Shown here piece after piece: positions 526-33,256 of a stretch of DNA of 64,000 nt. Below the pieces are notes generated by a model. The model saw nothing but the letters and a program-made list of their open reading frames with translations. It made no database searches and was not told the origin of the DNA. The translations under genes and the position numbers were made by a program. This stretch comes from Methylotenera sp. Its GTDB lineage: Bacteria; Pseudomonadota; Gammaproteobacteria; Burkholderiales; Methylophilaceae. The number at the start of each line of letters is the position of its first letter. Position 1 is the stretch's first letter. The stretch lies in contig JADGRO010000016.1 of NCBI GenBank assembly GCA_017880905.1, positions 5,363 to 69,362 on the forward strand, in the 5' to 3' direction.

Positions 526-3146
526 TAAAGTGTTCTTGCTACCTCGACAACTTCATAAACTTCTAATATATCGCCAACTTCAATATCATTAAAGTTTTTA
601 AGTGAAAGCCCACACTCAAAGTTGTTTTTCACTTCTTTTACGTCGTCTTTAAAGCGTTTCAATGAATCTAACTCCCCAGTATGAATAATCACATTGTCAC
701 GCAACACGCGTACTTTAGAGTTACGTTTAATCATGCCGTCTTGCACATAGCAACCAGCAACCGCGCCCACTTTAGAGATACGGTACACCTCGCGAATTTC
801 TACCGTGCCTATCATCGTTTCTTTTTGTTCTGGAGCTAACATGCCGCCAAGAGCTGCTTTTACTTCATCTACCGCTTCGTAAATAATATTGTAGTAGCGT
901 ACATCGACGCCCAAATTGTCGATGAGCTTACGAGAACCAGCATCAGCGCGCACGTTAAAGCCAATTAACACAGCGCCAGACGCGCTCGCCAAGTTCACAT
1001 CCGATTCGCTAATTGCACCTACGCCAGTATGGATAATATTGACTTTGACTTCTGCGGTTGAAAGTTTTTGCAAACTGGTAGCCAAGGCTTCGTAAGAGCC
1101 TTGTACATCAGATTTAACTATCAAATTGAGCGTTTGTACTTCGCCCTCTTCCATTTGCTCGAACATATTTTCAAGCTTGGCCGCTTGCTGCTTGGCCAAC
1201 TTCACATCGCGGAATTTGCCTGCACGGAAATTTGCAATCTCGCGTGCTTTACGCTCATCGTTGAGCACAATCACTTCCTCGCCTGCGCTTGGTACATCGG
1301 ATAAGCCTAAAATTTCAACTGGAATTGATGGCCCAGCTTCTTTAATTTCTTTGCCGGATTCATCTAACATAGCGCGTACGCGGCCAAACGTACTGCCCGC
1401 TAAAATCATATCGCCACGACGTAACACACCAGATTGCACCAAAATTGTTGAAACAGAACCACGGCCTTTATCAATTCTACCCTCGATTACCAAGCCTTTG
1501 GCTGGCGTATTTCTAGGCGCTTTTAATTCTAATATTTCGGCTTGAAGCAACACTGCCTCTAGCAACTCATCGATACCTTTGCCTGTTTTTGCTGACACCT
1601 CACGGAACATAGTATCGCCACCAAGATCTTCTGGCACCACTTCTTGGGCTACCAGCTCCATTTTCACGCGTTCTGGCTGTGCATCTGGTTTATCAATTTT
1701 GTTAATCGCCACTACTATTGGCACACCAGCCGCTTTGGCATGGTGAATTGCTTCAATGGTTTGTGGCATTACGCCGTCATCGGCAGAAACCACCAAAATC
1801 ACCACATCAGTCGCTTTTGCGCCACGCGCACGCATGGCGGTGAATGCCTCGTGACCTGGCGTATCTAAGAAAGTCACCATACCGCGTGGTGTTTCGACGT
1901 GGTATGCGCCAATATGCTGGGTAATGCCACCCGCTTCACCAGAAGCCACATGGCTACGACGAATATAATCTAACAGTGAGGTTTTACCATGGTCAACGTG
2001 ACCCATCACCGTCACCACTGGGGGGCGCTCTTCCAAAATCGCCTCGGCATGTTCAGTTTCTTCTAGGAATGTTTCTGGGTCATTTGCTGCCGCTGCTTTA
2101 GCTGTATGCCCCATTTCTTCCACCAGAATAATTGCCGTTTCCTGGTCGAGCACTTGGTTAATCGTTACCATCATGCCCATGCCCATCAGCACCTTAATCA
2201 CTTCGGCCGCTTTTACCGACATTTTGTGTGCCAAATCGGCCACCGAAATAGTTTCTGGTACCAACACTTCATGCACAATAGGCTCGGTTGGCGCATTAAA
2301 AGCGTGCTCTTGGTCGTCATCGTCTTTATGCGATTTGTGTTTACCTTTTGGTGAACGCCATCCTTGGTTAACGTTAATATCTCCGCGCGTTTTTAAGCCA
2401 CGCTTTTTGCTTTCTTTTTCGTTCCAATCTTTGTTATTGCCTTTGCTTTTTTTCGCATCTTTATTTGCAGGTTTTGCTGCACCTTCTTTAGCGACAGGCT
2501 TATGTAGTGTACCTTCAGAGAGTTTTGCAGTTTTAGCTTTTGCAGAAGCTTCCTCAGCTATCTTTTTAGCTTCTTCTTCCGCGCGGCGTTGCGCAATTTC
2601 TTGTTTTTTACGCACATCTTCTGCTTGTATCGAAGCCAGAGCTGCATGCCGTTGGGCTTCTTGTTCACGCAGCGCAACTTGCTCCGCTGTTAATACCTGT
2701 TTCTTGAGTGTTGTAGATTTTGTTTCAGGTGCTGTCACTACTGGTGCGGCTTCATTGCTAGCAATTGCTGCATCCGCAGCCTCATCAGCAACTGGTGATA
2801 GTCTAGTTTCAATAACTGGCGCTGGTGCCGCTACTTCAGTCTCACTTTCATTGCGCACCAACACACGTTTTTTGCGCACCTCGACTTGAATCATCCGCGC
2901 TTTGCCCATGCTGTCGGTTTTTTTAATTTCGGTGCTAGATTTGCGTGTGAGCGTGATTTTATTTTTTGGGGCTTGTGCGGCACCATGTTCTTTACGCAAA
3001 TATTCCAGCAGCGCAGATTTATCAGCTTCTTCTAATTTGTCTTCAACGGCAGATTTAACCACGCCCGCACTTTTCAGCTGCTCTAGCAGCAAGGCGGTGG
3101 GCAGCCCTAGCTCTGCGGCGAATTGTGCAACGGTTGTTTGTGCCAT
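525..3146 (-). CDS. infB: Translation initiation factor IF-2
   Basis: [24 protein letters not shown] GTPase motifs; nusA-infB-rbfA order. Confidence 0.99.
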
Positions 3147-4706: not shown

Positions 4707-5192
4707 CTAAAACACTGGGCTTAAGCGTGCCTTATCAATATTATTCAAGGCCATTTTGTAAGTATGGCCTTCAAATTCCAGCAACACCATGTCATCTTGT
4801 ACACCGCGCAAAGTGCCCAAAAAGGTCTTGCGCGGCAACGTGGTTTCAGTCGCTTGTGCGCTTTCATCCTTAATACCCACACGCAGTTTAATCTGTGCGC
4901 GCTCACCCGTAAAACGCACAAAATCTTTTTCTTTTTTTAACACTCTATCCATACCAGCTGAAGAAATCTCCAGCCTATCATAATCAATCTCATGCTCCAC
5001 CGTCAGCACATTGCCCAGTTGATTGCTCACCAACACACAATCATCAATATTTACGCTATCTTTGTTATCTTTTGGGTTTAACTTATCAATAAACACGCGC
5101 AATAACTTACCTCTGTTTGACATCTCAAGGTCTACCAGCTCAAACCCAAGTTGGGTCACGGTTTTATCAATTAAACCCTGCAAATCTTGCAT
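4707..5192 (-). CDS. rimP: Ribosome maturation factor RimP (likely start ATG at 5192, shorter than the track ORF)
   Basis: LRVFID, YDRLEISSAGMDR motifs; AAGGA SD upstream of MQDLQ; first gene of the nusA-infB operon. Confidence 0.95.
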   Translation of the reverse strand: MQDLQGLIDKTVTQLGFELVDLEMSNRGKLLRVFIDKLNPKDNKDSVNIDDCVLVSNQLGNVLTVEHEIDYDRLEISSAGMDRVLKKEKDFVRFTGERAQIKLRVGIKDESAQATETTLPRKTFLGTLRGVQDDMVLLEFEGHTYKMALNNIDKARLSPVF

Positions 5193-9174: not shown

Positions 9175-10473
9175 ATGACAAAACCTACAAAAGCAACGAT
9201 TACTTTCGATAACGACGCTAAACCCATCGAATTACCCGTACTTTCTGGCACACTAGGTAACGATGTGATTGATATTCGCACACTGGGTAAACACGGCGTA
9301 TTTACTTACGACCCCGGCTTTATGTCTACTGCGGCATGCCAATCTAGCATCACGTTTATTGATGGTGAAAAAGGTCAACTGCTTTATCGCGGTTACCCGA
9401 TTGAACAACTTGCCGAGCATTGCAACTTTTTAGAAGTTTCATATTTACTGATGCATGGCGAGCTGCCAAATACAGCGCAAAGAATTGAATTCACCAAAAC
9501 TATCGTCAACCACACTATGTTGCACGATCAGCTTAGCAATATATTCCGCGGCTTTCGGCGCGATGCGCACCCCATGGCTGTTATGATTGGCGTGGTTGGC
9601 AGCTTGTCGGCTTTCTATTTCGATGCTATGGATGTGTATAACCCGCAACATCGCGTTATTTCTGCACATCGTTTATTAGCAAAAATCCCTACCATTGCGG
9701 CTTGGAGTTACAAGTACAACTTAGGTCAGCCGTTTATGCAGCCCAAAAACAGCCTCAATTATGCTGAAAACTTCATGTATATGATGTTTGCCGTGCCTTG
9801 CGAGGAATACACGCCAAACCCAGTATTGGCGCGTGCTTTCGAGAAGATTTTAATTCTGCATGCAGACCATGAGCAAAATGCTTCAACTTCTACCGTTCGC
9901 TTAGTCGGCTCGAGCGGTGCCAACCCATTTGCCAGCGTGGCGGCAGGCATTGCCTCGCTTTGGGGACCAGCGCACGGCGGCGCCAATGAAGCCACACTTA
10001 AAATGCTGGAAGAAATCGGCGATGTATCGCGCATAGGCCAATTTATTAAACGCGCTAAAGATAAATCTGACAGTTTCAGGCTGATGGGTTTTGGGCATCG
10101 TGTGTATCGTAGCATGGACCCACGTGCCGCTATCATGCAAAAAACCTGTTACGAGGTATTAAACGAACTTGGTTTGCACGACGACTCGATTTTTAAACTG
10201 GCGATGGAGCTGGAAAAAATAGCGCTGGAAGACGAATATTTTGTCTCACGTAAACTTTACCCGAATGTCGATTTTTACAGTGGCATAGTCATGCGTGCGA
10301 TGGGTATCCCTTACAGCATGTTTACCGCCATCTTCGCGCTTGCCCGCACCGCTGGCTGGATAGCGCAATGGGACGAGATGAACGCTGACCCGGAACACAA
10401 AATTGGCCGCCCAAGACAACTTTATACAGGTGAAGCGAGACGGGAGTTTGTGCCGATTGAAAAAAGAACTTGA
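9175..10473 (+). CDS. gltA: Citrate synthase (type II)
   Basis: [35 protein letters not shown] motifs. Confidence 0.98.
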
Positions 10474-10570
10474 ATTTAAAGTGATGTTTTTATTTTTTTA
10501 ATTTTAGGATTTACTAAAAATAAATAACAACATGATTTATTTATATATTTTATTCATTCGCAACAACACA

Positions 10571-10610
10571 ACATCCATTTTGACGCAATATAAAACGTCA
10601 AATAGGATGT
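10571..10610. repeat. Imperfect 15-bp inverted repeat just upstream of the GTT core site
   Basis: ACATCCATTTTGACG-N10-CGTCAAATAGGATGT (13/15 complementary). Confidence 0.7.
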
Positions 10611-10619
10611 CTACTTTAC

Positions 10620-11332
10620 GTTGGACTGCTCAAGAATGACGACGCACGAGAAGCCGACGGGGACGAATGGCCCGGTCCGGATTACGGGCGGCGGACCTCC
10701 GCCCCAGTTCCAAGCAGTCCCTTTTCCGTGTTCCAAGCCGGAAATGGAGGCACTGATTCTCCGCGGCGCTTTGAAATTCTCCGCCGGTATGGAGAAGCCA
10801 TTCTATTCTCTGGCTGGAGAACCAATCCAGAACAAGGAGAATGACCTCGATTTCCAGCTGCCCACGGCATCAGGGCTTCAGCACCTGGATCAAGCTGAAA
10901 TCGTGCACAGCATGCACCAAGGCGACTACGCCGGAGCGCCGAACCGATACCGGGTCGGTGACATGGTGGATACCGTCTGGGGCGTGATACAGGCAAAGGA
11001 AAAGAAATACGGAGAAAGGCGAAAGCTAGCTGTGCATCTGCTGCTCTACAGCGTTGACTGGAGGTTCCTGCTGAGCGAGTCATGCATAGGCCTACTCCGC
11101 GCGTACTGTCTGCGGCGCAAACAGCACTTCGTATCAATCGCGTACTACGCGCCCATCACCGTTGACGAGGGTATTCTCTGGCCCCTAGATCCATTCGATC
11201 CCGCGTCATTGCCGCACGTTGACGAGGCTACGGTACGAAACAACGTAGTGACTAACGGAAATCCGGCCATGTTTACGCCCGCTCCGAATGGCATGGGCGC
11301 AGAGCTTCGATTCGACAAATGAGCAGTCCAAC
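10620..11332 (+). mobile_element. Integron-cassette-like solo insertion
   Basis: GTTGGACTGCTCA (10620-10632) and TGAGCAGTCCAAC (11320-11332) are perfect reverse complements; the ends fit GTTRRRY and RYYYAAC; the enclosed DNA is visibly GC-richer than its flanks. Confidence 0.6.
10636..11322 (+). CDS. Hypothetical protein, possibly PD-(D/E)XK nuclease-like fold
   Basis: 228-aa ORF from ATG 10636 filling the inverted-repeat unit; ENDLDF...DQAEI and K.KKY...LLLY patterns; foreign codon usage; function uncertain. Confidence 0.6.
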   Translation: MTTHEKPTGTNGPVRITGGGPPPQFQAVPFPCSKPEMEALILRGALKFSAGMEKPFYSLAGEPIQNKENDLDFQLPTASGLQHLDQAEIVHSMHQGDYAGAPNRYRVGDMVDTVWGVIQAKEKKYGERRKLAVHLLLYSVDWRFLLSESCIGLLRAYCLRRKQHFVSIAYYAPITVDEGILWPLDPFDPASLPHVDEATVRNNVVTNGNPAMFTPAPNGMGAELRFDK

Positions 11333-11351
11333 CAAATTAAAGGGGTCAGCT

Positions 11352-11424
11352 TCAAATTAATTTCAAAACAATGCCCCTGCAAGCCGCTCTGGTATTGTCT
11401 CACAGAGCCTGCTCAAATTAATTT
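11352..11424. repeat. 12-bp direct repeat TCAAATTAATTT
   Basis: Copies at 11352-11363 and 11413-11424; the second overlaps the stop codon of the esterase gene. Confidence 0.65.
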
Positions 11425-12041
11425 GCAAAGCCCCATTGTTTTAACGCTTGTGCCATTTTATTGCCCACTTCAACGTAGCCCTGCGCATTTGGGTGTATCT
11501 GGTCAGATTTTAAATCTCTATCCGAAAGCACATCTGAAAACACACCTGCTATCAACGGCGTTGCGGTTTCTTTAGCAAGTTTTTCATACAGCGGATGATC
11601 AGACAAATTACCAAGCGCTGCTTTTAATGGACTAAATACGGGAATCGCCACCAAAATTGTGGTCACGCCTTGTTTTTTAGATTGCGCCAAAATGCTTTTT
11701 AAATTGGCGATGGTTTCGCTTTCCGGCACTTGGTGTAAAAAATCGTTGCCGCCTAGCTCGACGATTAACAGTTTTGGTTGATCTTGTTCCAGCAAGGCCG
11801 GCAGCCGCTCTAGGCCGCCCGCTGTGGTGTCACCCGGAACGCCTTCGTTAATGATTTTCCAGCCCGTGGTTTTGGCAAGTTGCGTTGGGTAATCTTCACC
11901 CGTATTTGCACCTGTGCCGTAGCTTAGACTATCGCCCAGAATAAGCACTGTTGCGCCTTGTGGGATAGTTGTGTACTTTTCTTTGTGGCTGCCACAGCTT
12001 GTAAGGATTAAAATAAGCAGTAGATAAATAAGCTTTTTCAT
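11418..12041 (-). CDS. SGNH/GDSL arylesterase (TesA-like), lipoprotein
   Basis: GDSLSYG, N.GVPGDTT, ELGGND, D.IHPN motifs; LTSC lipobox. Confidence 0.9.
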   Translation of the reverse strand: MKKLIYLLLILILTSCGSHKEKYTTIPQGATVLILGDSLSYGTGANTGEDYPTQLAKTTGWKIINEGVPGDTTAGGLERLPALLEQDQPKLLIVELGGNDFLHQVPESETIANLKSILAQSKKQGVTTILVAIPVFSPLKAALGNLSDHPLYEKLAKETATPLIAGVFSDVLSDRDLKSDQIHPNAQGYVEVGNKMAQALKQWGFAN

Positions 12042-31369: not shown

Positions 31370-32311
31370 ATGGCTACCACTAAAAATCAACCATTGCCTA
31401 TCGGCTATTTGCTACAAGACTACATCATCACCAAAGTCTTGAGCTCTGGCGGCTTTAGTTTTGTCTATCTTGCACAAGATATGAACAAAAATATCGTTGC
31501 CATTAAAGAATATATGCCAACAGGCTTAGCCTTGCGCGAAGAAGGTGCCACCGTGCTGCTGGGCACGGATGATGACGCTGCCACTTTTAAGCATGGCCTT
31601 AAATGTTTTTTTGAAGAAGGTTTGGCGCTAGCGAAAATTGATCACAGAAATATCGTGCGCGTGATTAATTTTTTTAGAGAAAATAACACCGTTTATATGG
31701 TGATGCAGTACGAGCGCGGCAAATCGCTGCAAGATTACATACTCTCACAACCCGAGCCGGTAAATGAAAAATTTGTGCGACGTGTATTTGGCGAACTTTT
31801 AAACGGCTTACGCGAAGTACACACACAAAAATTGCTGCATTTGGATATTAAGCCCGCCAATATTTATATTCGGTTAGACGGTTCGCCCGTATTGCTGGAT
31901 TTTGGTTCTGCAAGACAAACGCTTACCCAAGTGCAATCTAAATTATCTCCAAGCTACACGCCTGGTTTTGCACCTCCTGAACAATATTTTGAGCGCAAGC
32001 AACTAGGGCCTTGGAGCGATATTTATAGTGTTGGCGCGAGCATGTATTCTTGTTTAGTGCGGTCTGCGCCTATCGCTGCAAATCTGCGCGTAAAAGAAGA
32101 TACTTTGTCGCCTGCTGTTAAAACTGGCAAAGGTATTTATACCAAAGAACTGCTGGCAATTATTGATTGTTGTTTAAAAATTGATTATTTAGAAAGACCG
32201 CAGAGCGTGTTTTCACTGCAAAAAACTCTGCTTGAAAACGTGCCGCCGTTAATCCCTAAAAAACCAAGTTTAGTGAATAAAATTAAGCATGTTTTAAATA
32301 AACCGCTATAA
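31370..32311 (+). CDS. Hanks-type Ser/Thr protein kinase
   Basis: SSGGFSFVY, VAIKEY, HLDIKPANI, DFG, GFAPPE, SDIYS. Confidence 0.93.
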   Translation: MATTKNQPLPIGYLLQDYIITKVLSSGGFSFVYLAQDMNKNIVAIKEYMPTGLALREEGATVLLGTDDDAATFKHGLKCFFEEGLALAKIDHRNIVRVINFFRENNTVYMVMQYERGKSLQDYILSQPEPVNEKFVRRVFGELLNGLREVHTQKLLHLDIKPANIYIRLDGSPVLLDFGSARQTLTQVQSKLSPSYTPGFAPPEQYFERKQLGPWSDIYSVGASMYSCLVRSAPIAANLRVKEDTLSPAVKTGKGIYTKELLAIIDCCLKIDYLERPQSVFSLQKTLLENVPPLIPKKPSLVNKIKHVLNKPL

Positions 32312-32326
32312 CCGTAAATTTACTAG

Positions 32327-33256
32327 ATGAAATTCACTATTTATCAAAATAGTCGCCAAGGGCCAAGACCATATAACCAAGACAGATTGGCTTATTCTTA
32401 CAGCAAAGATGCTTTATTGCTAGTATTGGCGGATGGCATGGGCGGCCACCGTAATGGTGAAATTGCTGCGCAATTGGCGGTTAAAACACTTACCGATGCG
32501 TTTCAGCGCTTAGCTGTGCCAGCACTTAGCAGCCCAGCAAAATTTTTAATCGAACATATTCAGCAAGTACACGATATGATTGAAAACGTAACGCAAAGCG
32601 AAGAATTCGTCGAATCTCCGCGCACTACCATCGTTGCAGCCATTATCCAGCGCAGTTATCTATATTGTGCGCACGTCGGTGATTCGCGCCTGTATCATTT
32701 CCGTAATGGGCACTTGCTATTTCGTACCGAAGATCATTCCGTCGTGCAATCGCTGTATAAAAAAGGCATGATTTCTCTTGAAGAAATGGCGACCCACCCA
32801 TACAAAAATAAAATTTACAATTGTGTGGGGGGAGAAGCGCCGCCACAAATAGACCTATCTGATAGACATGAGCTCAGTGAAGGCGATACTGTTTTACTAT
32901 GTACAGATGGTGTTTGGGGCGTGATTAACGATCAACAAATCAAAGAAATTGTTCAACGAAATACGGATATTACCCAAGCTGTTACAGAGCTCATGGATAG
33001 CTCAGAATTTGCCAGTGATGATAAGGGTGACAATATGAGCGCTATTGGTTTGCAATGGGGCGACAGGCCAGAAAGTCATAGCGCAGTTTCTACACTGCTT
33101 ATGCCTTTGGGTGAGACCACTACCATCATTAACACCGTCACCCGCCAAATGGTTGATGGGAGCTCTCCATACGAACTTTCAGACGATGATATTGAAAATA
33201 CTATTGCCGAAATACAAAATGCTTTAATTAAAACACAGCAAAAACCTAGGATTTAA
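32327..33256 (+). CDS. PP2C/PPM-family Ser/Thr phosphatase
   Basis: NQD, LADGMGGH, HVGDSR, LCTDG, DN motifs. Confidence 0.93.
   Translation: MKFTIYQNSRQGPRPYNQDRLAYSYSKDALLLVLADGMGGHRNGEIAAQLAVKTLTDAFQRLAVPALSSPAKFLIEHIQQVHDMIENVTQSEEFVESPRTTIVAAIIQRSYLYCAHVGDSRLYHFRNGHLLFRTEDHSVVQSLYKKGMISLEEMATHPYKNKIYNCVGGEAPPQIDLSDRHELSEGDTVLLCTDGVWGVINDQQIKEIVQRNTDITQAVTELMDSSEFASDDKGDNMSAIGLQWGDRPESHSAVSTLLMPLGETTTIINTVTRQMVDGSSPYELSDDDIENTIAEIQNALIKTQQKPRI

Follow-up and report, generated by a model that had tools for sequence, protein, structure and literature searches.

Introduction

The qacEdelta1 gene in the 3'-conserved segment of class 1 integrons is a terminal gene cassette with a truncated attC site, permanently fixed at the end of its array. 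Chromosomal cassettes without a nearby integrase gene (intI) have been described both as attC-site clusters without an integron-integrase (CALINs; Cury et al. 2016, PMC4889954) and as single attC sites lacking integron-integrases (SALINs; Loot et al., bioRxiv 10.1101/2022.09.11.507474). The latter authors reported that single cassettes insert into the genome outside integrons at attG sites, which share a minimal GWT consensus scattered genome-wide, and proposed that later loss of attC by replication slippage serves to 'domesticate' the cassette. The present study concerns a locus of related type in a 64,000-nucleotide stretch of the chromosome of Methylotenera sp. (contig JADGRO010000016.1; hereafter the window, to which all coordinates refer unless another locus is named), in which a GC-rich open reading frame (ORF) of 228 amino acids lies between the citrate synthase gene gltA and a convergent GDSL esterase gene. 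Taken together, the evidence makes it probable that this locus is the stump of an integron platform holding one trapped cassette, the integrase having acted in trans or since been lost, and the attC site having been deleted.

A preliminary description of the same DNA had offered two explanations: an integron that has decayed to attI and a single cassette whose attC is truncated, or an undescribed route by which single cassettes are fixed behind housekeeping genes. The former is supported by the array context of the homologues, the reuse of the insertion site and the absence of attC, all of which are detailed below; the latter is unnecessary, a route of that kind having already been published (attG/SALIN insertion; Loot et al., bioRxiv 10.1101/2022.09.11.507474).

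The Cassette and Its Homologues

The cassette ORF (10636-11322, forward strand; ATG at 10636, TGA at 11320-11322) is framed by an inverted repeat whose two 13-bp arms match perfectly, GTTGGACTGCTCA (10620-10632) and TGAGCAGTCCAAC (11320-11332), so that the exact bounding claimed in the preliminary description was confirmed. The left arm, an R' core plus a 6-nt extension on the forward strand, begins with G↓TTGGAC (10620-10626; the arrow marks a crossover point or junction), which conforms to GTTRRRY and sets the left cassette end just upstream of the ORF, as in integron cassettes generally, whose ORFs mostly have no promoter of their own. The right arm, on the same strand, overlaps the stop codon and contains at 11326-11332 the inverse core R'', GTCCAAC, which conforms to RYYYAAC. 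These fits had also been pointed out beforehand, and every sequence feature then listed proved to be present, albeit with coordinates displaced by about 1 nt.

The base composition of the ORF sets it apart from its surroundings: its GC content is 0.57 (0.54-0.58 along its length) as against 0.43 for the window, about 0.44 for the flanks and 0.30 for the intergenic leader that precedes it, and at third codon positions (GC3) the value of 0.66 exceeds those of gltA (0.48) and the esterase gene (0.43). Such differences from a host of GC 0.43 mark the ORF as foreign, its composition pointing to a GC-rich donor.

Comparison with other loci (designated here by L numbers, and individual homologous proteins by P numbers) demonstrated that both close homologues (73-84% identical) and distant ones (42-45%) sit in attC-separated arrays of small co-directional ORFs, namely L001, L003, L139, L140/L141 and L142/L143. 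In L001, L139 and L140/L141 (78-83% identity), the attC site upstream of the homologue ends in G↓TTGGAC, or G↓TTGGTC in L139, with GTTGGAC opening the cassette in L001 and L140/L141 exactly as in the window; the full left repeat arm recurs unchanged in L140/L141 and, in L139, with agreement at 12 of its 13 positions. The cassettes of the close homologues open with GTTGGWCTG, their stop codons run into GCAGTCCAAC, and GTCCAAC is then followed by a GC-rich palindromic attC of 60-75 nt ending in GTTAGGY. The more distant homologue in L003 (45% identity) lies among small co-directional ORFs each followed by a repeat of about 100 nt spanning ACCTAAC to GTTAGGT, and another, P0009 (42% identity), occurs in L142 and L143 as a single cassette at two distinct places in the array. 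On the evidence of these contexts, that is, of the attC arrays and the shared GTCCAAC boundary, the window ORF is identified as a true integron gene cassette. A second attC-less copy of the family (79% identity) was recorded in L002 (5005-5702), not in an array but within a polysaccharide cluster of high GC content, where it immediately follows a GT4 glycosyltransferase gene; it likewise ends just past CAGTCCAAC.

The boundaries of the foreign segment were established independently by BLAST comparison with L148, a locus whose esterase is 90% identical to that of the window. Homology extends through 9900-10621 at 93% identity and resumes through 11335-11967 at 87%, the intervening 713 nt in the window being unrelated to the corresponding 331 nt in L148. 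These stop and restart points of homology, 10621 and 11335, make the foreign segment coincide exactly with the piece bounded by the repeat.

Taken by itself, the repeat is not significant: perfect 13-mer inverted repeats with a spacing of 300-3000 nt number 8 in the window as against a mean of about 6 in Markov-1 random windows, and it therefore failed as a stand-alone argument. Its meaning derives from its exact bracketing of the ORF, its fit to core and inverse core, and its conservation around homologues in cassette arrays, in the light of which it reads as R' and R'' of the cassette itself, lengthened by 6 bp. The chance-level frequency, together with the lack of any attC in the window, might be held to favour an explanation unconnected with integrons, by which the ORF would be an orphan gene with a fortuitous repeat or a miniature transposable element with 13-bp terminal inverted repeats. 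Such an explanation is hardly tenable. Apart from the inverted repeat, the marks of a transposable element are missing, as the flanks (TTTAC and CAAAT) show no target-site duplication and no transposase domain was found; moreover, homologues in cassette arrays have an attC starting at the same GTCCAAC, with the repeat conserved, and it is these arrays and the exact junctions with L148 that refute it. The preliminary description had itself named three findings that would undo an integron origin: homologues never associated with attC, an ORF fixed at this locus in relatives, and a repeat that is not conserved. The reverse was observed in each case, the repeat being conserved in the close homologues and the gltA-esterase junction in relatives being either empty or occupied by other inserts.

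The Leader as a Probable, Reused attI-like Site

Immediately upstream of the cassette lies a leader of about 140 nt (10481-10619, forward strand), which alignments of the window with L148, L006, L149, L150 and L119 delineate as a probable orphan attI-like platform. Its conserved blocks are GTGATGT, TTAGGnnkTACTAAAA (10504-10519) and TTTGAyGcAATATAAArCGTCAAwTAGGATGkCTAyTTTAC, the core at the junction being CGTCAAWTAGGATGKCTAYTTTAC↓GTT, and in the window CTACTTTAC↓GTT is found at 10611-10622, as had been noted in the preliminary description. In all six loci homology collapses directly past TTTAC↓GTT, and the approximately 50 nt ending at this junction are far better conserved than the neighbouring intergenic DNA.

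Beyond the junction the loci diverge. The 228-amino-acid cassette of the window has no attC; L148 carries a 73-amino-acid membrane ORF; L006 a weakly GIY-YIG-like cassette of 421 amino acids with a complete attC of about 60 nt; L149 a 173-amino-acid cassette with a class-1-type attC, followed by a 109-amino-acid gene without attC; L150, in which the leader is partly deleted, a 127-amino-acid cassette with a Methylophilaceae-type attC and then the same 109-amino-acid gene as L149; and L119, where the leader is not beside gltA, at least three cassettes. The attC sites detected comprised one each in L006, L149 and L150 and at least two in L119. L149 and L150 encode identical esterase proteins and have different first cassettes, which is the pattern expected from insertion at the first position. 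The attC of the first cassette in L149 (about 5029-5088, reverse strand) shows 95-99% identity to the attC of aadA type known from mobile class 1 integrons and is matched by 2,514 plasmid records, a similarity which suggests cassette traffic between clinical-type integrons and the gltA leader locus in the environment.

In three further metagenomes the leader core was also present, and past about position 10620 it continued into several different sequences. The summed depth of this core in the three was 10-36, as against 200-860 for the Methylophilaceae attC family in two of them, a disparity that fits one platform per array. A scan of viral contigs for the leader gave no match. From its behaviour across these sequences, the leader is judged to be probably a reused attI-like insertion site.

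It is this reuse that bears upon the possibility of a one-off attC x attG (SALIN-type) insertion at a random GWT behind gltA, with attC lost later and all attI-like features coincidental. That route is experimentally established, with later loss of attC proposed (Loot et al., bioRxiv 10.1101/2022.09.11.507474); the junction does contain GTT, no integrase is nearby, and the attC-less family copy behind the glycosyltransferase gene in L002 lies outside arrays. An attG site is, however, neither conserved nor reused, while the GTT of the window belongs to a conserved module whose junction at least five other loci reuse for different cassettes, one of them not beside gltA. Site reuse and conservation over about 50 nt right up to the junction thus argue against a random attG site, and an origin of this type is considered very improbable.

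The leader also contains an imperfect palindrome (10571-10585 and 10596-10610, forward strand) with 15-nt arms that are 87% complementary and a 10-nt spacer, again as indicated in the preliminary description. It folds as a hairpin with a z-score of -3.1, and in L119 one compensatory change (ACATCC/GGATGT to CCATCC/GGATGG) is present. The same description had remarked that the cassette offers no room for an internal promoter; this poses no problem, since the leader has a putative sigma-70-like promoter, recognised by consensus match and facing the cassette (10580-10608, forward strand), with -35 TTGACG, a 17-nt spacer and -10 TAGGAT conforming at 9 of 12 consensus positions. Relatives in which the leader is intact keep the -10 hexamer; their -35 hexamer is TTGACG in L148 and L006 or TTGATG in L149 and L119.

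These properties lend some substance to another interpretation, according to which the stretch from about 10504 to 10620 (TTAGGA...TTTAC↓G) is a mini-cassette with a promoter but no ORF and the leader hairpin is its attC, atypical and rich in AT, so that the locus would be a CALIN fragment in place of an attI stump. Consistent with it are the folding of the palindrome (10571-10610) and its compensatory change in L119, a crude attC scan that flagged the L006 copy (TTTTAAC...TTTAC GTTAGAG), the cassette-like TTAGGn that opens the leader in the window, L006, L119, L148, L149 and L150, the variable flanks on both sides of the core of about 50 nt in metagenome contigs, and the common occurrence of ORF-less cassettes in Methylophilaceae arrays (L049). 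By way of contrast, the spacer from stem to GTT is 9-12 nt instead of the usual 5-6 nt, the window copy is without a clear R'' (RYYYAAC) and went unflagged by the attC scan, TTAGG is preceded by A or T and not G, the leader is always first in its array and, in two of the three metagenomes, of low copy number beside the genuine attC family, and a weak IntI-like similarity lies directly upstream of the leader in L119. On balance this interpretation is regarded as unlikely.

The Missing attC and the Right Flank

On the 3' side of GTCCAAC, where an integron cassette carries its attC (R''-L''-variable-L'-R', an imperfect palindrome of 55-140 nt), R'' alone remains in the window: neither L boxes nor R' (GTTRRRY) follow, and AT-rich locus DNA stands in their place. 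Pattern searches of the window for attC sites of the Methylophilaceae and aadA types found none, and a purpose-made scan combining regular expressions with folding, which was too unspecific in that it gave many hits within coding regions, returned only non-specific hits there. The sequence CAAATTAAAGG after GTCCAAC was considered as a degenerate attC 3' end (CAAAC↓GTTAGG) and rejected, the likeness being too weak.

The right flank, (A)TTAAAGGGGTCAGCTTC... (11335-11364, forward strand), is common to the window, L147 and L148 in alignment, with homology to L148 restarting at 11335, and is on this account locus DNA. A permafrost metagenome yielded contigs identical to the window which, at low depth, cover the right junction (11182-11505). 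It is possible that x↓TTAAA at the start of the flank represents the right half of the original attI core. Downstream of the ORF, AAAGGGGTCAG occurs at 11339-11349, and a 12-nt direct repeat, TCAAATTAATTT (11352-11363 and 11413-11424, forward strand), brackets a copy of a hairpin repeat described below, its second copy holding the esterase stop codon; both features had been noticed previously. For the direct repeat, which contains the palindrome AAATTAATTT, three origins are conceivable: duplication of the target site by the hairpin element, duplication through slippage, and extension of the stem.

Search for an Integrase Gene

A search of the 64-kb window by tblastn with an IntI1 query sequence gave nothing better than E = 2, and ten ORFs of 290-346 amino acids, being of a size to encode recombinases, were all identified as housekeeping genes by comparison with Pfam. 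The claim in the preliminary description that the window lacks intI was in this way upheld, and no intI adjoining an attI site, of the sort that defines a complete integron, was detected. Equivalent tblastn searches of the comparison loci, those added later not being re-scanned, produced no match at E <= 1e-3.

In L119 a short frame, SKLLDQVRGKIRLGYTKLKW (893-1030, reverse strand), diverges from the leader just upstream of it and is truncated by a hairpin-repeat copy. The translation on this strand, SKLLDQVRGKIRL..., aligned with residues 13-38 of IntI1 at E = 9e-5 in a single pairwise BLASTP comparison. This provides a weak hint that all that is left of an intI gene may survive in this frame and that the leader may be the intI-proximal end of a decayed integron.

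Proposed History of the Locus

The probable course of events may be set out as follows. A circular cassette originating in a GC-rich donor would have been inserted at the G↓TT of the leader by an integrase whose gene lies elsewhere in the genome or has since disappeared, this cassette corresponding to 10621-11332 and comprising the 228-amino-acid ORF with its own R'/R'' cores in the form of the 13-bp inverted repeat. The attC stem-loop beyond GTCCAAC would later have been deleted, most likely through hairpin-stimulated replication slippage or hairpin excision, and with attC lost the cassette would be no longer excisable and thereby immobilised. Transcription of the ORF would probably proceed from the leader promoter, by read-through from gltA, or both, and would stop at the hairpin repeat before the convergent esterase gene.

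A number of observations weigh against this history. The right junction reads ...GTCCAAC CAAA↓TTAAAGG and not GTCCAAC-G↓TT as expected of a clean hairpin deletion, and the terminal genes of L148, L149 and L150 are also without attC, so that either attC loss is recurrent or the right junctions were formed in some other way. No integrase gene was seen beside the leader at any locus, and in view of this the attI label rests on behaviour, namely site reuse, first position and low copy number; the IntI-like frame of L119 was unconfirmed by searches of Pfam, NCBIfam, PDB and a large protein database. The folding leader core, with its compensatory change and its flanks variable on both sides in metagenome contigs, could be an unusual attC instead of an attI, and the leader promoter is a candidate recognised by its match to the consensus. 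Finally, homologous recombination through gltA and the esterase gene could spread alleles of the locus without an active integrase in the strain.

Beyond the trapped-cassette history lies a broader proposal, which is regarded as possible but doubtful: that the leader, whether attI-like or a mimic of attC, constitutes a portable orphan module equipped with a promoter, which is served in trans and seeds integrase-less arrays at various sites in Methylophilaceae. Were this so, the gltA/esterase spacer would be a point of cassette exchange at the level of the population, and terminal cassettes would be routinely fixed by attC loss, giving rise to a 'domesticated' class invisible to attC-based finders.

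The Encoded Protein

The 228-amino-acid protein gave no match in Pfam, NCBIfam or PADLOC, and only seven close relatives were found among 5.8 billion proteins. A profile search of the family recovered 413 representative clusters at E <= 1e-3, and a Pfam scan of ten longer, fused members detected no domains; as judged by these searches and by gene context, the family is uncharacterised and usually cassette-borne. Ratios of nonsynonymous to synonymous substitution (dN/dS) relative to four homologues were 0.07-0.11, with dS > 1, which denotes a real gene under purifying selection.

An AlphaFold2 model built from an alignment of 72 sequences (predicted local distance difference test, pLDDT, 93.9; predicted template modelling score, pTM, 0.91) superseded an earlier one from 8 sequences (pLDDT 63), with which a fold search had been uninformative. 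The order of elements in the modelled core (helix, three strands, helix, strand, helix, strand) agrees with the alpha-beta-beta-beta-alpha-beta arrangement of PD-(D/E)xK nucleases, and residues D72, E88, K121 and Y125 are invariant across the 72 sequences. Foldseek matches were mostly nucleases, all of them weak (E >= 2e-3, the best given at E = 9e-3; TM-score <= 0.45), the top matches being the PD-(D/E)xK nucleases SfsA, PA4535, HincII, AddAB, BstEII, Mus81 and phage endonucleases. The protein is thus predicted to be probably nuclease-like with a PD-(D/E)xK-like fold. In L145 and L146 (3773-5690), outside cassette arrays, a distant member of the family (P0017) lies 8 nt 3' of an ATPase gene with AAA_14 and DUF4143 domains, with which it may form a two-gene ATPase and nuclease module.

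Gene Neighbourhood and the Dispersed Hairpin Repeat

The region belongs to the housekeeping chromosome of Methylotenera (Methylophilaceae), with the gene order anmK, gltA (forward), convergent GDSL esterase (reverse) and an Fe-S assembly gene. The conserved left neighbour, gltA (9175-10473, forward strand), matched Pfam Citrate_synt at E = 1e-137, and its stop codon is separated from the start of the leader by 7 nt in the window and by about 10 nt across all gltA loci. The conserved right neighbour, a GDSL esterase/arylesterase gene (11418-12041, reverse strand), matched Lipase_GDSL_2 at E = 4e-24; the nearest relatives of its product in GTDB genomes are from metagenome-assembled genomes (MAGs) of Methylotenera in which the gene order recurs, and the convergent layout is kept across Methylotenera genomes.

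The spacer between these two genes measures 944 bp in the window, where it houses the 228-amino-acid ORF, and is nearly empty (25-29 bp) in L010, L012 and L013. Elsewhere it contains an HNH homing-type endonuclease (L007), SieB (L055), a cation-efflux protein (L015), a PIN protein (L147) or ORFs of no recognised identity. Variable spacers were recorded in L005, L006, L007, L014, L015, L055 and L147, most of the inserts being without the leader, and L005 and L006 are two spacer alleles of one MAG. The spacer is, in short, a variable hotspot.

Between the cassette and the esterase gene, at 11365-11410 (no strand assigned), lies a decayed copy of a Methylophilaceae hairpin repeat, of the subfamily GCCGCTCTGGTATTG. 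The consensus of this repeat, AAAACAg-ATGCCCTGGAAGCC-GCATGGATATT-GGCTTCCAGGGCAT-cTGTTTT, comprises a 14-bp stem with covarying positions (80% paired, compared with 34-40% in shifted registers) and a conserved 11-nt loop, GCATGGATATT, with a T-run often following. It was found in at least 120 metagenome contigs (L019-L138) in many unrelated contexts, a distribution that ruled out the conserved motif on the right-hand side as a locus-specific att site. Rfam searches of the window region and of the hairpin loci found nothing. The window copy is probably a terminator-like element that works in both directions, and the dispersed family as a whole may consist of bidirectional terminators or of elements resembling repetitive extragenic palindromes or miniature inverted-repeat transposable elements.

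The same repeat was encountered in a Methylophilaceae array in L049 (185-4520), which includes an ORF-less cassette of about 370 nt repeated four times. Each of these copies opens with a hairpin repeat of the window's subfamily, together with a second GC hairpin and a T-run, and the attC family of the array, CCTAACCC...GCGCTAAAGCGC...CAAAC↓GTTAGG, is the one present at a depth of 200-860 in two metagenomes. In a different part of the window (31370-33256), a gene for a eukaryotic-type Ser/Thr protein kinase adjoins one for a PP2C phosphatase.

Comparison with Known Systems

The locus resembles CALINs (Cury et al. 2016, PMC4889954) and SALINs (Loot et al.) in comprising a chromosomal cassette without a nearby intI. 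It differs from both, which are recognised by at least one detectable attC site, in that the window contains no attC at all, and in that the insertion point is a conserved, reused and promoter-bearing leader, not an arbitrary site. Domestication following attC x attG recombination (Loot et al.) offers a further parallel, with a single cassette fixed outside a complete integron, its attC lost and its expression in need of an upstream promoter; the distinction lies in the use of a specific module of about 50-140 nt which is shared between loci and deployed repeatedly.

Comparison with class 1 integrons is equally instructive. The terminal qacEdelta1 cassette is accompanied by intI1 and attI1, and its truncation is fused to sul1, whereas no intI was detected in the window and the truncation abuts host intergenic DNA. 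The leader probably shares with the class 1 attI1 site and its Pc/P2 promoters the G↓TTRRRY crossover, insertion at the first position and an outward promoter (here a predicted one) just upstream; unlike attI1, to which it has no sequence similarity, it is hairpin-forming and has no known linked intI, and integrase-binding direct repeats were not identified in it.

A cassette devoid of attC, such as that of the window, would probably be missed by attC-based tools such as IntegronFinder, and genome surveys may for this reason undercount genes of integron origin. The locus reveals no new mechanism, the process being one that is already known. It does, however, correspond to the end state predicted by Loot et al., a cassette captured outside a complete integron and locked in place by attC loss, with intermediate states (a full attC, two cassettes, a class-1-type attC) on display at the gltA locus in close relatives, and it indicates that an orphan attI-like site with no neighbouring integrase can go on acquiring cassettes across a lineage.

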